A DNA stretch of 35,922 nucleotides, taken from Anaerolineae bacterium. GTDB taxonomy: Bacteria > Chloroflexota > Anaerolineae > Epilineales > Epilineaceae. Shown piece by piece: positions 22,581 to 35,066 of this stretch. Made by a program: the position numbers and the translations under genes. Position 1 is the stretch's first letter; each line of letters opens with the position of its first letter. The notes under the pieces were generated by a model. The model saw only the letters and a list, made by a program, of their open reading frames with translations, was not told where the DNA came from and ran no database searches. The stretch lies in contig JAJCYU010000306.1 of NCBI GenBank assembly GCA_029262755.1, forward strand, positions 1 through 35,922, given 5' to 3'.

Positions 22581-22822
22581 GAGTGGGTCCGGTCCGGTGG
22601 CTTCGGAAGGCTCGCCCGGAACGCGCGTTGGCGGCCCGATCGGCGCGGCATGCTAGCCCGGAGGCTTTCCGACGGTCAAACCTTTCTTGGGTGGGGAGGG
22701 GACGCGGAGTCGATCGTATTGTCCCACAGCAGGTGATTGGCCGCTCGTCGGAAGCACGTTATGCTCGACGACCGATTCGCTGCCGCGCGTCGAGGCGAAG
22801 TCCGAGGCCGCACTGGAGGTCC

Positions 22823-23973: not shown

Positions 23974-25425
23974 CTACGCGCGCGGCGCGCCATCGACCGG
24001 GAGTCGCAACGCGAACGTCGCCCCGCCGTGCGTCGGCTCGACGGCCGCCAACGTGCCGCCGTGCGCCCGGGCGACCGCACGCGCGACCGCTAGGCCCAGC
24101 CCCGCGCCGCCCACGTCGCGGCCGCGCGCCTCGTCGAGGCGGACGAAGCGCTCGAACACGCGCTCCCGATCGGCGGGCGCGATCCCGGGGCCGTCGTCGC
24201 TCACGAGGATGTCTACCGTGGATGGCGCGGCGGGGTCGGCGTAGGGCGATGCGCTGGATTGCACGTCCAGCCATACGCCGCGCTGCGCGTGGCGCGCCGC
24301 GTTGTCCAGCAGGTTGCGCAGCGCGCGCCGCAGCAGCGCGGGATCGACCGTGAGCGTAGGCGCATCCGCGACGTCCGCGTGCACCGGAAGGCCGTGGCCG
24401 GACTCCGTGGCGGACGCCTCTTCGCGCAGCAGGTCCGCGAGGGCGACGTCGCGCGGATGGAGGGTCAGACCGCGCTCGTCGTGCCGCGCCAGGGTCAGCA
24501 GGTCGTCCGCGAGCCGCTCCAGGCGCAGGTCTTCGCGCAGCAGGTCGCGCACAAGCTCGCCTTGCTCCACGGCCTCGGGATAGTCGCGCGCCACCTCGAG
24601 CATCGTCCGAATGGCGGCGATCGGGCTGCGCAGCTCGTGCGACGCGTCCGCGACGAAGCGGCGTCGTTGCTCGGTGGAGGCGCGGATGCGCGTGATGAGG
24701 TCGTTGAGCGTCAGCGCCAGCCGCTGCACTTCGTCGCGCGTCGCCGGCACGGGTACGCCCGTCGCGAGGTCGTCCGCGCTGATGGCCGCGGCCCGCGCCC
24801 GGATTGCCTCCACGGGACGCAGCGTACGGCCTACCAAGTGCCATACGAGCGCCGCGGTAGCGAGCAGGATCACGGGCAACGCGAGGGCCAGCAGGGGCGC
24901 GAGGACTTCTGTCGCGCGTTCGACAGGGCCGAGGCCGGCAACGACGATGACCGTGGCCGGCCCTGCGGACGTCTCGACGCCGTAGGCCGCCATCCACGCG
25001 GGCTCGAGATCGGCATCGGCGCCGGCGTCGTCCCGATCTTCGTCCTCGATCTCCGGCCACTCGATCCGCCGGCTGACGCTCGCGCCCGGCACGAGGCGGG
25101 GTCCGGCGAGCGGTGGTGCGCCGGCCAGGTCGGGGCTGGCGGCGAGCACCTGCTCGTCCGGGCCGATGACCTGGACGATGAGGGCTTCCCCGCGGCTGGG
25201 AAGGACGGCGGGCAGCGCACCGCTCTCCGCCAGCACGCCGATGTCGCGTGCGCGCGTCTCCGCGGTCGTGCGCACGGCGTCGGTGAGGGCATCGGCCGTA
25301 GCCCATAGCAGGCCGATGCCGCCCAGTGTCAGGACGACGCCGACCACGAGCACGGCCGCGAGCGTCGTGCGAGCGCGCAGGCCGGCCGCTAGATCCCGCC
25401 AACGCGACAAGCGATCAGCCCCCAT
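23974..25425 (-). CDS. HAMP-domain sensor histidine kinase
   Basis: Two TM helices and a HAMP segment (RDEVQRLA.TLN). H-box FVADASHELRSP, N-box NLLDNA, G1 DDGPG, G2 GAGLGL. Confidence 0.93.
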   Translation of the reverse strand: MGADRLSRWRDLAAGLRARTTLAAVLVVGVVLTLGGIGLLWATADALTDAVRTTAETRARDIGVLAESGALPAVLPSRGEALIVQVIGPDEQVLAASPDLAGAPPLAGPRLVPGASVSRRIEWPEIEDEDRDDAGADADLEPAWMAAYGVETSAGPATVIVVAGLGPVERATEVLAPLLALALPVILLATAALVWHLVGRTLRPVEAIRARAAAISADDLATGVPVPATRDEVQRLALTLNDLITRIRASTEQRRRFVADASHELRSPIAAIRTMLEVARDYPEAVEQGELVRDLLREDLRLERLADDLLTLARHDERGLTLHPRDVALADLLREEASATESGHGLPVHADVADAPTLTVDPALLRRALRNLLDNAARHAQRGVWLDVQSSASPYADPAAPSTVDILVSDDGPGIAPADRERVFERFVRLDEARGRDVGGAGLGLAVARAVARAHGGTLAAVEPTHGGATFALRLPVDGAPRA

Positions 25426-26092
25426 CGGCCGCCAGCAAGTAGCCCGCGCCGCGGACCGTCTTGAGCGCGCACCGCCCGAAGGGGGCGTCGATCTTGCGGC
25501 GGAGTTGGCCGACGTAGACCTCGACGATGTTCGGGCCGCCCTCGTAGCGCCAGTCCCAGACGTGCTCGATGATGCGCGTCTTGCTCAGCACGACATCCGG
25601 ATGTCGCATCAAGTACTCGAGCAAGGCGTACTCACGCGGGGTCAGCTCGATGTCGGCCTCGCAGCGGCGCACGACGCGCCGCGCGGGGTCGAGCACGAGG
25701 TCGCCCGCGGCGAGCACCGCCGGCCGCTCGTGCACCGTGCGGCGTAGCAGCGCCCGAATGCGCGCCAAGAGCACGACGAAGGAGAAGGGCTTGGTCAGGT
25801 AGTCGTCGGCGCCGGTGTCAAGGCCCTCAGCCTCGTCATGCTCGCCGTCCTTGGCCGTGAGCATGAGGATCGGCATCCAGCGCTCCGCGGCGCGCAGATC
25901 GGCGCACACGAGGTAGCCGTTGCGTTTGGGCAGCATGATGTCGAGGATCACCAAGTCGTACTCGATCTCGGTGGCCAGCCACAGACCTTGCTCACCGTCT
26001 TCGGCCAGATCCACCGCGAAGCCCTCGGCCTCCAGCCCGCGCCGCAGATAGCCACCGAGGGTGACCTCGTCCTCGACCACCAAGATGCGCAC
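25415..26092 (-). CDS. OmpR/PhoB-family response regulator
   Basis: Motifs RILVVEDE, LDIMLP, MLTA, GADDYLTKPF and winged helix LTPREY...NIVEVYV..LRRKID...TVRGAGY. Start GTG 26092 after GGAGG (alternatives 26098, 26131). Confidence 0.93.
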   Translation of the reverse strand: MRILVVEDEVTLGGYLRRGLEAEGFAVDLAEDGEQGLWLATEIEYDLVILDIMLPKRNGYLVCADLRAAERWMPILMLTAKDGEHDEAEGLDTGADDYLTKPFSFVVLLARIRALLRRTVHERPAVLAAGDLVLDPARRVVRRCEADIELTPREYALLEYLMRHPDVVLSKTRIIEHVWDWRYEGGPNIVEVYVGQLRRKIDAPFGRCALKTVRGAGYLLAADGG

Positions 26093-26255
26093 GCTCACCG
26101 ACCTCCGCTTGGACTTGAGCTTCGTTTCCATTGTGGATTCCGCACGACCGTAGGGTCATGAAACCGATGGTCGTTCAGCACTCCAACCTTCGTTCCGCCG
26201 TGGGTTGGACGGAAACCATCGTACACGGAAGAAGCCATCGTATACGGAGTCGGAG

Positions 26256-27117: not shown

Positions 27118-27146
27118 ATCTAGGACGCCGTGCGGCCGCGTGACCG

Positions 27147-27162
27147 TGTTACCATGGCCGTC
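27147..27162 (+). promoter_or_regulatory. Extended -10 promoter for a leaderless ABC transporter transcript
   Basis: TG-n-TACCAT (27147-27155), then 7 nt, then ATG 27163. No Shine-Dalgarno. Confidence 0.5.
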
Positions 27163-29334
27163 ATGCACGGCGCTCGATTCCGGGCGCGGTCCGCCCCGGC
27201 CGCGCCTTCCCGCTACCGTCACGTCCTGGCAACCTACCTGCCGCCCTTGCGTGGCAGGCTGGCGTTGCTCGGGCTGTTGATGCTCGTCGACATCTCGCTC
27301 GATTTGATCGGGCCCCGCATCCAGAAGGCCTTCATCGATGGCGCGCTGGAGAGCCGGCCGATGGCCGACCTGCTGCGCCTCGCCGCCGCATACCTCGCGC
27401 TCGCCTTCGTGCTGCAAGGGCTCTTCGTCGCCTCGACGTGGGTGGCCGCCGACATCGCACAGCGGGCCACGAACCACCTGCGTGAGGATCTGCTGGCCCA
27501 CGTGCTGCGCCTCGACCTACGCTTCCACGACCGTCGTACGCCGGGCGAGCTGATCGAGCGCATCGACGGCGACGTTTCGACGCTGGCCAATTTCTTGTCG
27601 CGCTTCGTGCTCGAGCTCTTGGGCAGCGTGCTGCTGCTGGGCGGCGTGCTCGTGCTGTTGTACCGCATCGATCCGCGGGTTGGGCTGATCTTGTCGGCCT
27701 TCGCGCTCGTATCCTTCGTGGCGATGCGCCGCATGACCGCCGGCGCCGCGGCGCGTTGGGAGGCATCGCGCGAAGCCAACGCGCAGCTCTTCGGCTTCCT
27801 CGAGGAGCGCATCGCGGCCACGGAGGACATCCGTGCAAGCGGCGCGGCCGAACACACGATGCGCGGCTTGTTCACGCACGCGCGCGTAACGTGGAAGACG
27901 CGTCTGCGCGCCGCCCTCTTCGGCTCGATCACGGGCAGCACGTCCATCTTCCTGATGGCCGTCGGCTCCGCGCTGGCGCTTGCGCTCGGCATCTGGCTCT
28001 ACTTGAACGACGAGATCACCCTCGGCACCGTCTTCTTGATCTTCAGCTACGGCCAGTTGATCCGCGGCCCCATCGACGGCATCGCCCGGCAGATGGAGGA
28101 CATGCAGCGCGCGGGCGCAGGCATCACCCGCATCGGCGCGCTGCTCGCGGAACCCGCGGTCGAGGCGGTGGCGGGAGCGGAAGGCGACGGGGGCGGGGGC
28201 GGCGACGACGACGGGGGAGGCGACGGCGACGGGGGAGGCGAACGAGTCGCAGTTACGCAACATGGCCGTCGCGACCACGGCGACCGGACGTCGCGCGGGG
28301 CGGTCGCGGGGTCGGCGCCGGATCGCGCGCCGGCCGATGCGCTGCCCGAGGGGCCGCTCGCGGTGTCCCTCGTCGACGTCGGCTTCGGATATGACCCCGA
28401 GCAGCCCGTGCTCTCCAACGTGACGATCGACCTGCCCGCCGGGTCATCGCTCGGGCTGCTCGGCCGCACGGGCAGCGGCAAGTCGACCATCGCCCGACTG
28501 CTGTTGCGGCTCTACGACCCCGATGCGGGTACGATCCACGTCGGCGCTCGGAACCTGCGCGGGCTTGCGCACAGCGCCTTGCGTTCGCGCGTCGCGATGG
28601 TCACCCAAGACGTCCAGCTCTTCGAGACCAGCCTGCGCGACAACCTGACCCTGTTTAACGACCGGATCGCGGACGAGCGCCTCGCCGCCGCTCTCGACGC
28701 GCTCGGCTTGTCCGACTGGCTCGCGGGACTGCCCGCCGGCCTCGACACGCGCCTGCAATCGGACGGCGGCGGACTGTCCGCCGGCGAAGCACAGCTCGTC
28801 GCGTTGGGCCGGGTCATGCTGCGCGATCCCGGCCTCGTCTTGCTGGACGAAGCCTCGTCCCGCCTCGACCCGGTGACCGAGCGCCGCATCGAGCGCGCCC
28901 TCGCGCGCCTGACCGCCGGCCGCACGGTGATCGTGATCGCCCACCGCCTCGCCACGGTGCGCCGCGTCGACCACGTCGCCATTCTCGCGTCCGGCCGTGT
29001 CGTCGAACAGGGTGGGCGCGCGGATTTGGAAGCCGATCCAACGTCGCGCTTCGCCGCGCTGCTGGCCACGGGCCTCGAGGATGTCGAGGCCGCGGTGGAG
29101 GTTGGGCTGGATGGTGGGGTGGATGGTGGTGGGACCGACGGTGAGGGTGAGTCGCGGACGACGGGCGAAGAACGCGATTCGGACGTGGAACCGGGCTCGA
29201 GCGAGGCGGACGCGACCGGCAGGACGACGGGGTCGCGTGGGTCACGGGGGTCGCCTGGGTCGCGAGAACCGAACGCGTCCGGCGATTCGGACGAGCGTCC
29301 GAGTTCGGAACCGAACGTGGATCGCGAACGATGA
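27163..29334 (+). CDS. ABC exporter fused permease/ATPase (MsbA/HlyB-like), heterodimer half 1
   Basis: TMD (TPGELIERIDGD), Walker A GRTGSGKST, signature LSAGE, Walker B LLDE, IAHRL. Start 27163 or 27154. Confidence 0.93.
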   Translation: MHGARFRARSAPAAPSRYRHVLATYLPPLRGRLALLGLLMLVDISLDLIGPRIQKAFIDGALESRPMADLLRLAAAYLALAFVLQGLFVASTWVAADIAQRATNHLREDLLAHVLRLDLRFHDRRTPGELIERIDGDVSTLANFLSRFVLELLGSVLLLGGVLVLLYRIDPRVGLILSAFALVSFVAMRRMTAGAAARWEASREANAQLFGFLEERIAATEDIRASGAAEHTMRGLFTHARVTWKTRLRAALFGSITGSTSIFLMAVGSALALALGIWLYLNDEITLGTVFLIFSYGQLIRGPIDGIARQMEDMQRAGAGITRIGALLAEPAVEAVAGAEGDGGGGGDDDGGGDGDGGGERVAVTQHGRRDHGDRTSRGAVAGSAPDRAPADALPEGPLAVSLVDVGFGYDPEQPVLSNVTIDLPAGSSLGLLGRTGSGKSTIARLLLRLYDPDAGTIHVGARNLRGLAHSALRSRVAMVTQDVQLFETSLRDNLTLFNDRIADERLAAALDALGLSDWLAGLPAGLDTRLQSDGGGLSAGEAQLVALGRVMLRDPGLVLLDEASSRLDPVTERRIERALARLTAGRTVIVIAHRLATVRRVDHVAILASGRVVEQGGRADLEADPTSRFAALLATGLEDVEAAVEVGLDGGVDGGGTDGEGESRTTGEERDSDVEPGSSEADATGRTTGSRGSRGSPGSREPNASGDSDERPSSEPNVDRER

Positions 29335-31241
29335 GCGCGCAGAATTCTGAGCAGCCGCCGACGCCGCAGCCATCGTCACCGCCAGCGTCGCCGCAAGCGT
29401 CGCCGCCACGGTCGCCTTCCACCGCGACGGATTCGCCCACACCTCCGGCAAGTCCGCCTTCCGCGCCCACGAAGATGTGGCCGATTCTGTGGCGCCTCGC
29501 ACGCTATCGGCCCCTCCTCTATCTCACCAGCGGGATGCTGGCGAGCGTGATGTTCTACCTCTTTCCGCTGTTGCCGGGTCTGGTCGTGCGTCGGATCTTC
29601 GATGCGCTCAGCGACGGTGCGACGATGGCCGATGCGCCGTGGGCGCTTGTCGCGCTGCTGGTCGGCATCGCGGTGGCGCGGGTGAACTCGATCTTTGCGG
29701 CCACGGCGGCCGAGAGCAGCATGCAGGAGCTGATCGGCACGTTGCTGCGCGCCAACGTGCTGGAATCGATCCTTGCGCGGCCGGCCGCTCGGGCGTTGCC
29801 CGGAACCAGCGGCGAGGCCATCAGCCGGCTGCGCACGGACGTAAACGCGATTCCCGGCTTCTTGACGTGGACGCTCGACCCCGTCGGCCAGGGCGTCGCC
29901 GTGATCGCGGCGGTCGCCGTCTTGTGGCGCGTGGAGCCGGCGTACACGGCCTTCGTCGTGCTGCCGCTGGTGGCGGTCATCGTGGTCGTGAACGCGGCCG
30001 CGCAGCGCATCCGGGGCACGCGCAGGGTGGCGCGCGAGGCCGAGGGCAGCGTCACGGGCTTGATCGGCGAGGTCGTCGGCGCGGTGCTGGCCATCAAGGT
30101 GGCGGCGGCCGAGGACAGGGTGATCGCCCGCTTCCGCCGGCTGAACGCAGCACGCCGCAACGCCGTGCTGCGCGATACGTTGCTCTCGACGCTCCTACGC
30201 TCCTTCTCGTACAACGCCTCCAACATCGGCGTCGGCGCGCTGCTGCTCTTGGCCGCAGGGTCCATGCGCGACGGCGACTTCAGCGTGGGCGATTTCACCT
30301 TGTTCGTCTCCTACCTCGGTTGGCTGGCCACCGTGACGAGCATGTTCGGCAACTACCTGACGTCGTGGCGCCAGACCTCCGTCTCCGCGGAGCGCGTCGC
30401 AGGCCTCGCGCCCGACGAGCCGCCGGCGGCCATCGCGCGTCATCGTCCGGTCTACCTGTGGGGCGCGGAGGCGCCGGCGCCGGCCGCGACGGTGCGCGGA
30501 TCGGAGGATCGCCTCGAACGGCTGGAGGCAGTCGGCCTTTGCTACGCGCATCCGGACACGGGCCGCGGCATCACCGGCATCGACCTGGTCCTGGAACGGG
30601 GCAGCTTCACGGTGATCACCGGCGAGATCGGGTCGGGCAAGTCGACGCTGCTGCGCGTGCTCCTCGGCCTGTTGCCGGCCGACGCGGGCACGGTGCGCTG
30701 GAACGGCGAGTTGGTGGAGGACACGGCCACGTTCCTGGTGCCGCCACGCTGCGCGTACACCCCGCAAGCGCCGCGCCTCTTCAGCGCTTCGCTGCGCGAG
30801 AACATCCTGCTCGGCCTGCCCCTCGACGACGACGCGCTGCACCAGGCCGTCCACGACGCCGTGCTCACCGAGGACGTCGCCGCGCTCCCGGACGGCCTCG
30901 CGACGCGCGTCGGACCGCGCGGCACGCGCCTCTCCGGCGGGCAGCGACAGCGCGCGGCTGCCGCGCGCATGCTCGTGCGGCGGCCCGAGCTCCTCGTCTT
31001 CGACGACCTCTCCAGCGCGCTGGACGTCGAGACCGAGGCGCGGCTGTGGGAACGCGTCCTGGCGCGCGACGGCGCGACGATCCTCGCCGTCGCGCACCGC
31101 CGCGACGCGCTGCGGCGCGCCGACCAGGTCATCGTGCTCGCGGAAGGCCGCGTGGCCGCCGCGGGTACGCTGGACGCGCTGCTCGAGGAATCCAGCGCCA
31201 TGCGCGCGTTGTGGGACGCTCCTCAGCAAGACCTCAGTTGA
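29331..31241 (+). CDS. ABC exporter fused permease/ATPase, heterodimer half 2
   Basis: ATGA overlap with half 1. TMD, GEIGSGKST, LSGGQ, Walker B VFDD, VAHRR. Confidence 0.93.
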   Translation: MSAQNSEQPPTPQPSSPPASPQASPPRSPSTATDSPTPPASPPSAPTKMWPILWRLARYRPLLYLTSGMLASVMFYLFPLLPGLVVRRIFDALSDGATMADAPWALVALLVGIAVARVNSIFAATAAESSMQELIGTLLRANVLESILARPAARALPGTSGEAISRLRTDVNAIPGFLTWTLDPVGQGVAVIAAVAVLWRVEPAYTAFVVLPLVAVIVVVNAAAQRIRGTRRVAREAEGSVTGLIGEVVGAVLAIKVAAAEDRVIARFRRLNAARRNAVLRDTLLSTLLRSFSYNASNIGVGALLLLAAGSMRDGDFSVGDFTLFVSYLGWLATVTSMFGNYLTSWRQTSVSAERVAGLAPDEPPAAIARHRPVYLWGAEAPAPAATVRGSEDRLERLEAVGLCYAHPDTGRGITGIDLVLERGSFTVITGEIGSGKSTLLRVLLGLLPADAGTVRWNGELVEDTATFLVPPRCAYTPQAPRLFSASLRENILLGLPLDDDALHQAVHDAVLTEDVAALPDGLATRVGPRGTRLSGGQRQRAAAARMLVRRPELLVFDDLSSALDVETEARLWERVLARDGATILAVAHRRDALRRADQVIVLAEGRVAAAGTLDALLEESSAMRALWDAPQQDLS

Positions 31242-31293: not shown

Positions 31294-32874
31294 ATGTATG
31301 CCACTTTGCGCCGGACGAGAGCGTGGTTGCCTGCCGCGGCGATGACGTTGATCCTGCTGCCCGCCGCGTGCTCGGACACCGATGGGTCGCGCGAAAGTCC
31401 GAGTCCGGACGAAGCGCAGCGCGAGAACGCCGTCGTCGTCGATGGCGTGGATTCCACGGTCGGCGCGGGGGACGGCGCCGGGTCGGCCGGGACCGGCGCG
31501 CGGGACGACGCGTGGGGCGTCACCCGCTTCTACATCGAGCTCACGGAGGACGACATCGAGGTGCAGTCCTTCGTCGACGGTGCCCGGTGGCAGGGGCTGG
31601 AGATTGCGAGTCCCGCCGGCTACACGATCTACGCCACGGAAGCGGACTCGTATCTGGGCGCCCAGGGTCTGAGCGAGTTGCAGATCGACGGTTGGCCGAG
31701 CCACTTCCCCGTAGTCGGCGATCCAGCGCACCTAGAGATCGAATCGGTCGATGAATACCTTGCTCTGTTTCCGGCGGGCACCTACTACTTTCACGGCCGG
31801 CGCGTCGCGGGCGGCACGCTCTCCGGCGAGGCCCGCTTCACGCACGACCTTCCGGGCTTGCCCGAGATCCTCTCGCCGCCCGATGAGGACGAGCTCGCGG
31901 TGCTTGACCCCGAAGACGCCGTCATCCGCTGGGAGCCGGTCACCGAGACCTTTGACGGCAAGGAGCCCATCGAGATCGTCGAGTACGAGGTCATCGTCGA
32001 GCAGGTGGAGCCATTCCGGAAGCTGAGCATCCACGTACCGGGCGACCGTACGAGCCTGCGCGTGCCGCGCGCCTTCCTCGAGCAAGACGCGGTCTACGAC
32101 GTCGAGCTCGTGGCCATCGAAGCGAGCGACAACCAGACGATCGCGGCTTCCGCGTTCCGGACTTCGGCCGACGTGGAAGCGCCCGAAGAGACCGATCCGC
32201 TACCCGGCGCGCTGAAAGCCGCCGCGTTCTATGTCGAGCTCAGCGAGGACGACATCGAGATCCAGACCTTCACCGATGGCTCCCGATGGGACCTGCTCGA
32301 GATCGAAGGCCCCTCCGGCGACTTGGTCCTGCGCACGGAGGCTAGCTCCTTCATGGCGGACCAGGGTCTTAGCGAGCTGACGGTCGACGGCTGGCCTAGC
32401 CACTTCCCCATCGAGGGCGATCCCGAGCACCTCGAGATTCCCTCGATCGACACCTTTCTCTCGGCGTTCACCGAGGGCACGTATCGCTTCCGTGCCGTCA
32501 CCGTGGACGGCGAGGAGCTGACGGGCGCCGCAACGTTCACGCACGATCTGCCCGCCCTGCCGGTGATCACCGCACCCACGGTAGGCGACGAACCCGACGT
32601 GCTGGACCGGGACGATGTGACGATCACGTGGCAGCCGGTCACGCGCTCCTTCGACGGCGAAGACGCCGTCGAGATCGTCACCTACGAGGTAGTCGTCGAG
32701 CAGGTGGAGCCCTTCCGCAAGCTGAGCATCCATCTACCCGCGTCCGCCACAAGCGTCCGCGTGCCGGTAGCGTTCCTCGAGGCCGGACGCGAATACGAGG
32801 TCGAGGTCATGGCCATCGAGCGCAGCGGTAATCAGACATTTGCGGTCACGGAGTTCGCGACGGCGGAGCGGTAG
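31294..32874 (+). CDS. Acidic lipoprotein made of two ~200-aa internal repeats (each ending in an FN3-like beta-sandwich)
   Basis: GAGGAG RBS and lipobox-like LLPAAC. Repeats FY(I/V)EL(T/S)EDDIE.Q.F.DG.RW...GWPSHFP..GDP.HLEI...FTHDLP.LP...YEV.VEQVEPFRKLSIH. Confidence 0.8.
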   Translation: MYATLRRTRAWLPAAAMTLILLPAACSDTDGSRESPSPDEAQRENAVVVDGVDSTVGAGDGAGSAGTGARDDAWGVTRFYIELTEDDIEVQSFVDGARWQGLEIASPAGYTIYATEADSYLGAQGLSELQIDGWPSHFPVVGDPAHLEIESVDEYLALFPAGTYYFHGRRVAGGTLSGEARFTHDLPGLPEILSPPDEDELAVLDPEDAVIRWEPVTETFDGKEPIEIVEYEVIVEQVEPFRKLSIHVPGDRTSLRVPRAFLEQDAVYDVELVAIEASDNQTIAASAFRTSADVEAPEETDPLPGALKAAAFYVELSEDDIEIQTFTDGSRWDLLEIEGPSGDLVLRTEASSFMADQGLSELTVDGWPSHFPIEGDPEHLEIPSIDTFLSAFTEGTYRFRAVTVDGEELTGAATFTHDLPALPVITAPTVGDEPDVLDRDDVTITWQPVTRSFDGEDAVEIVTYEVVVEQVEPFRKLSIHLPASATSVRVPVAFLEAGREYEVEVMAIERSGNQTFAVTEFATAER

Positions 32875-33042
32875 ACGGGAACCAAGGGCTTCTGCGGTCG
32901 TGATCGTAATCGAACTCGCTCGCGGACGGATTCCAACTGCCGTGTAACAGGTCGCGGTGGCGACAGACCACAGCGGAGCGCCGTTGCGTCGAGTCGCGCG
33001 GTTGATACTTGCCCCGTCTCCGCACCCTGTCAGGAGCCCACC

Positions 33043-33588
33043 ATGCCCGCCCAATGTGTCGAAAGCGACGTCGAGATCGCTGCCCCACGCGAAGCCGTAT
33101 ATGCCTATCTGGCCGACTTTCCGCGCCACATGGAGTGGAACGAGCAGCCGCAGCGGATGACCCCGCTCAACGAGGGGCCTGCCCGCGTCGGCAGCCGCTA
33201 CAGCACGCTTGAGAGCATGCCGAGCAACATGCCGCTCAAGCAGCGCCTGATGTTCAAAGTGGCCATGCCGATCATGAAGATGGTGCACGGGATGTCGGAC
33301 GAGACGATCGCCGAGATCACGGAACTCGACGAGGGGAAGCGGGTCGCATGGGCCGCGCACCTGCCCAGCAAGCGCTCCGGGGACATGATGCGCATGCGCT
33401 GGGCGCTCGATCTTGAGGACGCGGGGGACGGGACCCGCGTGTGCCAGCAATGCGAGGTCGATCCGCCCGAAGGCAGCCCGTTCGCCAAGATGATCAATGA
33501 GGAGTTTGCTGCCGAGATTCGGCACGGCATCGATGGCAATCTAGCCAAGCTGAAGACGATTCTTGAGAACGCGGTGGCGTTCGCCTAG
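33043..33588 (+). CDS. SRPBCC family protein
   Basis: AGGAG RBS. Motifs VEIAAPREAVYAYLADFPRHMEWN, GPARVGSRY and C-terminal helix NLAKLKTILE. Confidence 0.88.
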   Translation: MPAQCVESDVEIAAPREAVYAYLADFPRHMEWNEQPQRMTPLNEGPARVGSRYSTLESMPSNMPLKQRLMFKVAMPIMKMVHGMSDETIAEITELDEGKRVAWAAHLPSKRSGDMMRMRWALDLEDAGDGTRVCQQCEVDPPEGSPFAKMINEEFAAEIRHGIDGNLAKLKTILENAVAFA

Positions 33589-33684
33589 CGTCCAGGAAGG
33601 CTGAGTGAATCGGGGCCGGGGTGGACTCCGCGCCCAAACGTCCTACCCTTGGGTGAGATATCCCTTCGCGAGCAGGAGCGCGCC

Positions 33685-34299
33685 ATGGTCAAATTCACAT
33701 TCGACAAGAGTTTCTTCTACGTTCTGTCCGGCCTGCTGGCCGTGCTGGTCGTGGGCGGCATCGGCTGGTTCGTCAGCCGCGGCGGCAGCCAGGTTGCGAC
33801 CTCACCCGTCGCGCCGGCCGCGCAGCCGTCCGTGCCGGACACGAACATCCCCGCACCGGTCGACGCGGGCGGCGCAACGGGTGCCGAGGCGCCCATCAAC
33901 GTCGCCCCACCGCCCGCGCCCGTCGCGGACGGTTCGCTTGACTCTATTCTGGCCGGCGGCGAGATCACGCCGGAGCAGGACGCGCTCGTCAGCCGGCTGG
34001 GTCCGGCCGATGCGCTCGAGAAGGTCCAGTCGCCGGATACGGTATGGGTTGACACCCGTACGGCGGAAGAGTTCGCCACGAGCCATATTCCGGGCGCGAT
34101 CTCGATCCCGGCCTATAGCCAGGACGCGGCGTTGGCGGAGCTGCCCAAGGATAAAGAAATCATCCTCTACTGTGCCTGACCTAACGAGCACACGAGTGCC
34201 CGTGCGGCACACATCCTGACGGCGATGGGCTTCGAGAACGTGACGACGGTATTCGGCGGTTGGGGCGCGTGGCAGTCCTACGGCTACCCCGTCGAGTAA
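33685..34299 (+). CDS. Membrane-anchored rhodanese-like protein with in-frame UGA (probable selenocysteine at 34177-34179)
   Basis: AGGAG RBS, ATG 33685 and an N-terminal TM helix. VDTR..EEF..SHIPGA..IP...LPKDKEIILYCA-TGA-PNEHTSARAAHILTAMGFENVTTVFGGWGAWQSYGYPVE-TAA; the rhodanese C-terminal half lies after the TGA. Confidence 0.85.
34196..34210 (+). promoter_or_regulatory. Candidate bacterial SECIS upper stem-loop
   Basis: GUGCC-CGUGC-GGCAC hairpin whose loop starts 22 nt after the UGA, with G at loop position 2. An alternative hairpin at 34184-34203 is also possible. Confidence 0.55.
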
Positions 34300-34316
34300 C
34301 GCAGCGAGATTCAACC

Positions 34317-34340
34317 GAGCACTTGAGTACTTGAATACTT
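34317..34340. repeat. 8-bp tandem repeat x3
   Basis: GAGCACTT-GAGTACTT-GAATACTT between the rhodanese and DinB genes. Confidence 0.6.
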
Positions 34341-34368
34341 GGGAACCAAGACCACACGCGGAACGAGC

Positions 34369-34941
34369 ATGAGTACAACGACTCGACCCGAGATGCTGGC
34401 GGACCTCGTCGCCTTCAGCGCAGGCTGGACGCGAGACGCCGTCGCCAAGATGCCCGATGCCATGCTGCGTTGGCGTCCTGACGAGCAGGCCAACGCGATC
34501 GACCTGACCGTCTGGCACATCGCGCGCATGGTGGACATCTTCGGCACACGCTTCGTCCAAGGCCGCGAGCAGGACGACGAACTGTGGTTCACCGGCGGCT
34601 GGGCCGAGCGCACCGGCTACGATCCGCGCGGCATCGGCATTCAAGGTATGGGCGGCCTCCTCGGCTACACCCAAGAGGAGGTCGCCGCCGTGCCGGTCTT
34701 CACGCGCGACGAGCTGCTCGCCTACTTCGACGCGACCCACGATGCGCTGACCGCGCATCTGCGCGCGATGGACGACGCGGCGCTCGACGAGCCACGCGCG
34801 GGCATCTCGGTCGAGCAGAGCACGTACGCCTTCGTGCGGCACCTGCTCATGGACACGACGCGCCACAGCGGCGAGATCTTCGCGATCGCCGAGATGTGGC
34901 GGCGGCGAAATCCCGGCGAGGTCGACGCCTTCATGCCGTAG
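34369..34941 (+). CDS. DinB family (DinB_2 / thiol S-transferase-like) protein
   Basis: Motifs LRWRP...ANAIDLTVWHIAR, G.GGLLGYT.EEV and HLLMDTTRHSGEI. Confidence 0.85.
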   Translation: MSTTTRPEMLADLVAFSAGWTRDAVAKMPDAMLRWRPDEQANAIDLTVWHIARMVDIFGTRFVQGREQDDELWFTGGWAERTGYDPRGIGIQGMGGLLGYTQEEVAAVPVFTRDELLAYFDATHDALTAHLRAMDDAALDEPRAGISVEQSTYAFVRHLLMDTTRHSGEIFAIAEMWRRRNPGEVDAFMP

Positions 34942-35066
34942 GCGGGTTGGTGATGGCGGTCGTCGAGAATAGCGGAAGAGGCGGTGGACTTTCGACGCCG
35001 GACGGCACGTTCGGCGCGAATCTACGCCGTAGCAATCTCCGTCATCGCTGCTGCCCGTACGCGCGC

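Follow-up and report, generated by a model that had tools for sequence, protein, structure and literature searches.

A TGA-interrupted rhodanese gene

The stretch of 35,922 nucleotides (nt) analyzed here at its full length, called the window below, is contig JAJCYU010000306.1 from an Anaerolineae bacterium of the phylum Chloroflexota (assembly GCA_029262755.1). It carries at 33685..34299 on the forward strand, on which all parts of the gene given below are located, a gene that on comparative sequence evidence very probably encodes a membrane-anchored rhodanese of 204 residues in which a UGA codon is decoded as selenocysteine (Sec). Six nt upstream of the ATG at 33685 we read a Shine-Dalgarno-like AGGAG (33674..33678), and the aligned Met is also the start in homologues (MVEIRVNRN, MIEFKMDRR). 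From there the frame runs from MVKFTF to IILYCA, reaches the TGA at 34177..34179 and continues with 39 sense codons (PNEHTSARAA...GGWGAWQSYGYPVE) to a TAA at 34297..34299, which sequence and translation identify as the true stop; translated with TGA as U, the gene has 204 codons including Sec165, followed by the TAA. An earlier, sequence-only reading had placed the stop of the annotated open reading frame within a rhodanese active-site loop and had the same frame run 39 codons further to the TAA. Both statements are correct in their coordinates. The rhodanese domain (Pfam PF00581, residues 108–198, 34006..34278) is matched with 67.9 bits (1.2e-18, gathering score 22.2) over profile positions 3–101 of 102, and the TGA lies inside the matched span. 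The predicted Sec165 opens the rhodanese loop (U-PNEHT-S) at the position of the catalytic cysteine. Two residues before it stands Cys163 (TGT, 34171..34173), the C of a CxU motif, which is invariant in 19 of the 19 sequences of our family alignment, from which the loci L031 (cut short) and L033 (open frame over-extended upstream) were left out. Inside the active-site loop the acidic Glu168 (34186..34188) also forms an invariant column of this alignment, and its counterpart is kept in CxC relatives of other phyla (C-P-N-E).

Using the read-through protein as query, we searched 41 related genomes including the window's own and found exactly one in-frame TGA in 31 of the 33 best matches (at least 79 bits) and none in the other two; counted from the match rows, 27 of the 41 genomes possess the TGA-bearing gene. 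In the window and 19 relatives, all 20 loci are open through the TGA, which is located at the identical aligned position within the motif Y-C-[A/T]-U-x-x-E-x-x-S-A-[R/G]-[A/E]-A, and the 38 codons 3' of it are free of stops in every one of them. Identity at the three codon positions is 0.69/0.686/0.502 in these 38 codons and 0.588/0.673/0.488 before the TGA, and this relaxed third position on both sides shows that the downstream codons evolve as coding sequence. Five residues past the TGA are invariant (G182, G191, G192, W196 and P202). The TGA persists across several families of one order and also across the phylum, since in an even sample of 301 phylum genomes it was present in every one of the 12 that matched at E ≤ 1e-22 (two of these, G266 and G184, are unpublished and no sequence of theirs was used, and the likewise unpublished locus L089 was left out). 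As TGA is the ordinary stop for 7 of the 18 other genes of the window, a genome-wide reassignment of the codon can be dismissed. Positions 33844–34258 are also covered by a contig from a different study, and the only difference listed for it is T>G at 33939; two other letters are counted for this contig in the piece table, none of them listed at 34177–34179, so that the check for a sequencing error suggested with the sequence-only reading came out in favor of the TGA. A possible source run, with a word depth of 6.65, matches the window stretch without any difference.

As predicted, homologues carry either Cys or TGA in a motif Y-C-x-[U/C]-P-x-E, with a Ser in one distant class-level relative as the lone exception. 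From the same order 17 lipoprotein paralogues read Y-C-A-C, and together with a tandem paralogue this makes 18 Cys genes with TGC or TGT at the TGA column. The tandem paralogue belongs to a pair in locus L024 (G008:C1:543978-545395), where the Sec gene and the Cys gene (YCACSAEQSSARAA, 224 aa) are located on the same strand; a regular-expression match on the opposite strand of this locus, CCCRUPSP, was discarded as chance. In the Pseudomonadota, Acidobacteriota and Nitrospirota 31 loci have YC[A/T]C with P-N-E or the like behind it. They come from a search whose pattern encoded Cys and therefore returned CxC forms only, which makes it a source of Cys controls but uninformative on the spread of Sec forms. 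A Cys orthologue with YCEC and the same anchor and linker is found in a genome of the same family (G004; locus L038, G004:C43:491-934), in which selA is present, and may represent a Sec-to-Cys replacement. Aligned without gaps to both domains of the structure 6mxv, the TGA column falls on the Cys of CGGGFRS and CGSGFRS, for the single sequence as well as for the family profile, and U165-PNEHT-S171 coincides with C-GGGFR-S, a loop of six residues. Sec165 would therefore replace the catalytic cysteine, with Cys163 as an extra residue at position −2. Such a Cys/UGA pairing at the catalytic cysteine is the classical Sec signature (the Cys/Sec-pair strategy) in the literature excerpts consulted.

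The hairpin behind the TGA and the machinery for Sec

A candidate core of a selenocysteine insertion sequence (SECIS) lies at 34196..34210 within the codons of S-A-R-A-A-(H), where 34196–34200 pairs with 34206–34210 around the loop CGUGC (34201–34205). The hairpin GUGCC-CGUGC-GGCAC occupies +17 to +31 after the A of the UGA and has a local fold energy of −7.9 kcal/mol. According to the excerpt of a review, the consensus for bacterial SECIS elements (bSECIS) comprises a loop of 3–9 nt, a stem of 4–16 bp, 16–37 nt from UGA to loop and a minimum free energy (MFE) of ≤ −7.5; in addition, loop position 1 or 2 has to be a G, as a rule with G or U as the next base (PMC13188914). With its 5-bp stem, the loop CGUGC, a spacing of 21 nt and −7.9 kcal/mol, the window hairpin satisfies these published constraints. 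When the 60 nt around the TGA are aligned for the 20 loci, all 100 cells of the 5-bp helix are paired, and two of the five pairs, the outer ones, change in a compensatory manner (GC 12, CG 4, GU 4; CG 11, UA 8, UG 1). The covariation score is 0.391 versus 0.165 ± 0.036 in shuffles, none of 500 shuffles being as high, while registers slid by 1–3 columns pair only 21–59% of the cells, and RNAalifold predicts the same helix unprompted. Covariation links the third position of the Ser codon to that of the second Ala codon, and the second position of the Ser codon to the first of the next codon, so that the signal is partly synonymous. Hairpin energies range from −7.8 to −10.9 kcal/mol in all 20 loci, and a G-U outer pair goes along with an extension of the helix by two more pairs. 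Six further Sec genes from the phylum sample keep the register (5/5 pairs in five, 4/5 in one). In contrast, the same register pairs only 0–3 of 5 positions in the 18 Cys genes used as control, and the tandem Cys paralogue of L024, which keeps S-A-R-A-A, has 3/5 pairs and a loop CGCGC without the G-U. The assignment of this hairpin to the bacterial SECIS position in the sequence-only reading is thus borne out by the published model and by the covarying helix, which may have been carved from the conserved S-A-R-A-A codons.

The sequence-only reading also implied that selA, selB, selC and selD should be encoded elsewhere in the genome, and all four were found. The tRNA-Sec scored 70.3 bits versus a gathering score of 47, with the anticodon tca in ARAGORN, and selA (507.7 bits), selB (344.5 bits) and selD (368.1 bits; G000:C109:4931-5866, locus L017) are all over their curated cut-offs. 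The selD gene contains an in-frame TGA of its own in the motif SSCAGUASKMGP (C-A-G-U-A-S-K), at what we take to be the usual Sec/Cys position three residues before Lys (compare Cys17/Lys20 of E. coli), and SelD itself therefore appears to be a selenoprotein here. A formate-dehydrogenase-alpha-like fragment (G000:C332:1345-2097) with one in-frame TGA, which matches TIGR01591 positions 2–239 with 160 bits, below the cut-off, is probably a classical FdhA selenoprotein. A search of the genome for the rhodanese selenoprotein TsoB found none. Among the 41 relatives selA is over the cut-off in 38, including G004 with its Cys orthologue, so that Sec use is general in the group; this co-occurrence is consistent with Sec decoding but does not discriminate.

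Several observations weigh against Sec decoding and have to be set beside this evidence. The hairpin is short, its −7.9 kcal/mol barely clears the threshold of −7.5 kcal/mol, and three of its five pairs never vary and sit in codons of conserved residues, so that the pairing may partly reflect protein constraint; in addition, kinship alone can let related sequences beat all shuffles without any structure. In the MFE fold of 54–71 nt after the UGA the hairpin is absent for the window and present in 14 of the 20 loci, and the sel genes are located on other contigs of an assembly that is 84% complete in 428 contigs. When 34170–34240 was folded by itself, z was −1.08, 30 of 200 shuffles did equally well and the hairpin was not in the MFE structure; for this hairpin the single-sequence fold is uninformative and the comparative analysis is informative. 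A scan of 33600–34400 against Rfam at E ≤ 1 returned 0 matches.

How should the TGA then be read? As a genuine stop it would leave a truncated rhodanese of 164 residues and a decaying remnant of 39 codons. Databases do call the homologues so, the 13 closest database proteins ending at the TGA (152–174 aa, 80% query coverage), one of them the ‘rhodanese-like domain-containing protein [Chloroflexi bacterium CFX6]’, whose name is the sole evidence of the phylum among the database homologues, and other genes of the window use TGA as a normal stop. Ending at residue 164, the protein would, however, lack the catalytic residue together with the C-terminal part of the fold, and such a truncation is hard to reconcile with 38 stop-free codons of third-position-biased divergence in 20 of 20 loci, five invariant residues beyond the TGA and the persistence of the TGA across families and phylum, which makes it very improbable. 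An error in place of a Cys or Trp codon might be suspected in a fragmented metagenome assembly of low depth (word depth 6.65), but its probability is negligible, as the contig from the different study shows no difference at 34177–34179 and 19 other genomes share the TGA. For practical purposes the conservation of the TGA, the stop-free and coding-like 3' codons and the independent contig exclude truncation, pseudogene decay and sequencing error alike. Scarcely more probable than truncation is a read-through of the UGA in which a standard aminoacyl-tRNA carrying Trp, Cys, Arg or Gly takes the place of Sec-tRNA(Sec). The inserted residue itself is beyond the reach of computation, and a minimal SECIS with an energy near the threshold leaves some room for such a read-through, yet the genome encodes the complete Sec machinery, selA is found in nearly all relatives (38/41), the hairpin has the G-U loop signature, covaries and is disrupted in the Cys versions, and Cys and UGA are paired precisely at the catalytic cysteine. 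Decoding of the UGA as Sec remains by far the best explanation, and on the comparative evidence SelB with Sec-tRNA(Sec) would be recruited by the minimal SECIS hairpin, whose loop begins 21 nt past the UGA.

Probable membrane attachment of the protein and its relatives

Residues 9–31 (33709..33777) form an N-terminal hydrophobic segment, which we read as an uncleaved signal-anchor transmembrane (TM) helix, with a mean Kyte-Doolittle value of 2.17 for residues 13–31 (19-residue window). The N-terminus ahead of this helix is short. Of the 20 TGA-bearing homologues 19 have an equivalent segment (at least 2.07), as has the Cys orthologue of G004, and like the anchor the linker behind it, probably flexible, is a conserved element. 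The helix is followed by a low-complexity linker rich in Pro, Ala and Gly (residues 32–100, 33778..33984; A 14, P 12 and G 8 of 69 residues), which varies in length and sequence among the homologues and is Pro/Ala/Ser/Gln-rich in them. From the sequence-only reading the TM anchor (2.17 on the Kyte-Doolittle scale) and the Pro/Ala linker (14 Ala and 12 Pro of 69) stand as described, while the extracytoplasmic site it had considered probable is plausible on account of the relatives, the protein's own charge being neutral. According to the positive-inside rule the basic flank of a TM helix stays cytoplasmic. Sec relatives from the same order carry 8–13 Lys/Arg before the helix and 0–1 after it, their N-termini having a net charge of +6 to +13, which places the N-terminus in the cytoplasm and the rhodanese domain outside. 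In the sister clade the Cys paralogues have signals of the lipoprotein type (LAACGG, IGCSSG), behind which come comparable Ala/Pro linkers, and one Sec relative (L092) has a lipobox-like signal. We therefore regard it as probable that the rhodanese domain of the window protein faces outward, with the N-terminus inside.

The opposite arrangement would be a true selenoprotein with N-out, C-in topology, its domain tethered to the inner face of the membrane like that of the CxC relatives from other phyla, which look cytoplasmic. This weighs against an outward-facing domain, and so do the charges around the helix, which are balanced in the window protein (+1 before and +1 after) and nearly so in relatives of the same family (+1, and 0 to +1), so that the orientation cannot be read from the window protein alone. 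Moreover, acidobacterial CxC forms of 153 aa have a helix at the extreme N-terminus followed by RRIKQRR, in relatives fused to DedA a Lys/Arg-rich stretch directly precedes the rhodanese domain, and fusions to Na+/H+ exchangers described below may be cytoplasmic too. We nevertheless consider a cytoplasmic domain unlikely, because the order-level Sec relatives have strongly basic N-termini (net +6 to +13) with only 0–1 Lys/Arg after the helix, and because the long Pro/Ala linker resembles that of the lipoprotein Cys paralogues whereas the putatively cytoplasmic forms have no such linker. An exofacial domain thus remains the preferred topology.

To place the protein among its relatives we used a phylogenetic tree of 75 domain sequences, in which 23 Sec forms and the Cys form of G004 group together with a support of 90/82. 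This Sec group is sister to the 17 lipoprotein Cys forms, which are supported by 100/100, the joint clade having 96/81. The domain offers few columns and some branches are long, the tandem Cys paralogue of L024 is not included, and the branch of the G004 Cys form within the Sec group is long and unresolved. The CxC relatives from Pseudomonadota, Acidobacteriota and Nitrospirota (L058-L084) seem to be attached to the membrane by other means: in all eight that were tested the rhodanese is fused to a DedA/VTT membrane domain (PF09335).

A further architecture was observed within the phylum itself. The loci L091:1483-3084 (−) and L093:148-1884 (+), from two genomes, encode Na+/H+ exchanger proteins (PF00999) of 534 and 579 aa, which end in a C-terminal rhodanese with Y-C-T-U and the same SECIS register (5/5 pairs). 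An exchanger-rhodanese selenoprotein fusion is not among the review listings in the excerpts consulted. Long TGA-bearing frames (592–650 aa) in the genomes G026, G024, G031 and G033 may be exchanger fusions too.

Taken together, this suggests that the rhodanese with Y-C-x-[C/U]-P-x-E is generally a membrane-associated module, and there seem to be at least four routes of attachment, namely a signal-anchor helix, a lipoprotein anchor, the DedA/VTT fusion and the Na+/H+ exchanger fusion.

Known rhodanese families and a possible chemistry

The best match of the protein in NCBIfam is NF041203 (rhodanese_LYCAU, ‘rhodanese-related (seleno)protein’), and residues 161–165 indeed read L-Y-C-A-U. Both have a single rhodanese domain with the Sec two residues after a Cys, but the window protein adds the TM anchor and a linker of about 70 residues. 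Membership fails on the score of 89.5 bits (with C for U; 85.5 bits in the six-frame search), which stays below the cut-off of 115, and none of the 41 relatives (best 100.8 bits) and none of the 301 phylum genomes reaches this value. Length and architecture differ as well, since from the 126 model positions 21–124 match residues 103–204 and the first 102 residues lie outside the model. A CxU rhodanese-like selenoprotein is listed as ‘form 3’ among predicted selenoproteins in the parts of two reviews that were available (PMC13188914, PMC9312934). As early as 2005 the Sargasso Sea families included rhodanese-related selenoproteins, again as predictions, as far as the excerpts tell. The statement of the sequence-only reading that such proteins are an established class therefore holds, with a curated model for the exact motif in addition to the review listings, and the novelty of the gene is lowered accordingly. 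CxU rhodanese selenoproteins have been catalogued as predictions for years and the present gene opens no new category; we found no functional study of them, a literature query on LYCAU giving unrelated words only.

Several better-known rhodaneses can be compared. The thiosulfate sulfurtransferases PspE and GlpE of E. coli share the rhodanese fold of about 100 residues with a catalytic residue opening a six-residue loop (1gmx, 2jtq), but they use Cys instead of Sec, have no Cys at −2, possess neutral or basic loops and are soluble, whereas the window protein has the invariant Glu and is predicted to be anchored. PspE is periplasmic and thus also an extracytoplasmic single-domain rhodanese. The NCBIfam models for GlpE and PspE gave 37.7 and 32.6 bits versus a cut-off of 102. 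TsoB (NF045694) is, from the source excerpts, a membrane-associated rhodanese selenoprotein like the window protein. It differs in having two Sec in a UxxxxU motif and 572 model positions including a DsbD-like membrane domain, which the window gene does not have, and the score of 32.5 bits is far from the cut-off of 805. The forms 1, 2 and 4 of rhodanese selenoproteins, including the Sargasso Sea rhodanese-related sulfurtransferase, likewise carry the Sec in the rhodanese domain and were predicted by Cys/Sec pairs and SECIS elements; as described in the available excerpts they have the motifs UxxS and UxxG without a Cys at −2, unlike the window protein. The closest solved structure by sequence, 6mxv (chain A, ‘Rhodanese-like family protein’), is a soluble tandem-domain protein with the loop C-G-G-G-F-R-S and has neither CxC/CxU nor the Glu. 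From 45 solved chains at E ≤ 1e-6 five residue-level alignments were inspected, and a CxC/CxU loop was absent from these five. In the Cys-less Alr3790 (PDB 3hix/3k9r) we observed a loop, Y-G-A-G-D-E-Q-T-S, that is nearer to Y-C-A-U-P-N-E-H/Q-T/E-S than the loops of active rhodaneses are, and this structure could serve as a template for the acidic loop.

Classical rhodanese loops are neutral or basic. As Sec, the Cys at −2 and the Glu in the loop are unlike a thiosulfate-binding loop, we propose a redox or transfer chemistry, tentatively and at rather less than even odds in our own judgment. In such a reaction the selenolate of U165 would attack either an oxidised substrate or a donor of sulfur or selenium, and Cys163 might then resolve the adduct via a Cys163-Sec165 selenylsulfide, while Glu168 in the loop would disfavour the anionic thiosulfate. 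The protein would act as a sulfur/selenium-transfer or thiol-selenol redox catalyst at the membrane surface and not as a classical thiosulfate:cyanide sulfurtransferase. This chemistry is purely inferred, and the gene neighborhood speaks neither for nor against it. Directly next to the rhodanese gene an SRPBCC protein (33043–33588) and a DinB_2 protein (34339–34941) are encoded, while the neighbors in the 19 homologous loci differ by clade (PolA/ABC-2, N-glycanase/helicase, GlnA/AstE, TrpA/cytochrome c and others) and a conserved operon was not found among these loci; since the neighbors vary between clades, they give no functional clue. A scan of 33000–35000 for promoters and terminators resulted in 0 and 0 matches, and a look-up of RNA data listed none containing this stretch. 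A little more plausible than this specific mechanism, though still short of an even chance, is the broader idea that the Y-C-x-[U/C]-P-x-E rhodaneses might constitute a functional class of their own, apart from the classical thiosulfate sulfurtransferases. Its members would be modules for redox reactions or chalcogen transfer at the membrane surface, marked by a vicinal Cys-x-Sec (or Cys-x-Cys) pair together with an acidic loop, and the Sec branch of the Chloroflexota could be a widespread exofacial selenoenzyme among them.

Some other features of the window were noted. It contains two pairs of DinB and SRPBCC (Polyketide_cyc2) genes, one adjacent at 22583–23350/23354–23890 and the second flanking the rhodanese gene. 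Between the rhodanese stop and the DinB_2 gene, at 34321–34342, there are three head-to-tail copies of 8 nt (ACTTGAGT, ACTTGAAT, ACTTGG..), which may be an operator or chance. Further upstream, 31294–32874 encodes a protein of 526 aa whose N-terminus (LLPAACSD) resembles that of a lipoprotein and which contains two long internal repeats with an fn3-like domain at the end of each; it is preceded by an ATP-binding cassette (ABC) exporter pair (27130–31241) and a two-component system (23974–26131).

In summary, the gene is, as far as its sequence can tell, an unannotated member of a catalogued and experimentally uncharacterised selenoprotein class. New is a whole Chloroflexota branch that lies below the threshold of NF041203 and is truncated in the databases searched, and new is also the minimal SECIS hairpin embedded in S-A-R-A-A codons with clean covariation; furthermore, the association of Y-C-x-[U/C] rhodaneses with membranes appears to be achieved in at least four different ways. 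If the reading is true, annotation pipelines miss this branch because its scores fall below the threshold of the only curated model. A selenoprotein branch of the phylum would then be recorded without its catalytic residue, and a lower cut-off or a sister model would mend many genomes. The compact SECIS overlapping a conserved protein motif would offer a clean case for studies on the origin of Sec from Cys sites, and with the gene a phylum whose selenoproteome is little studied would gain a Sec enzyme that is tethered to the membrane and probably exofacial.

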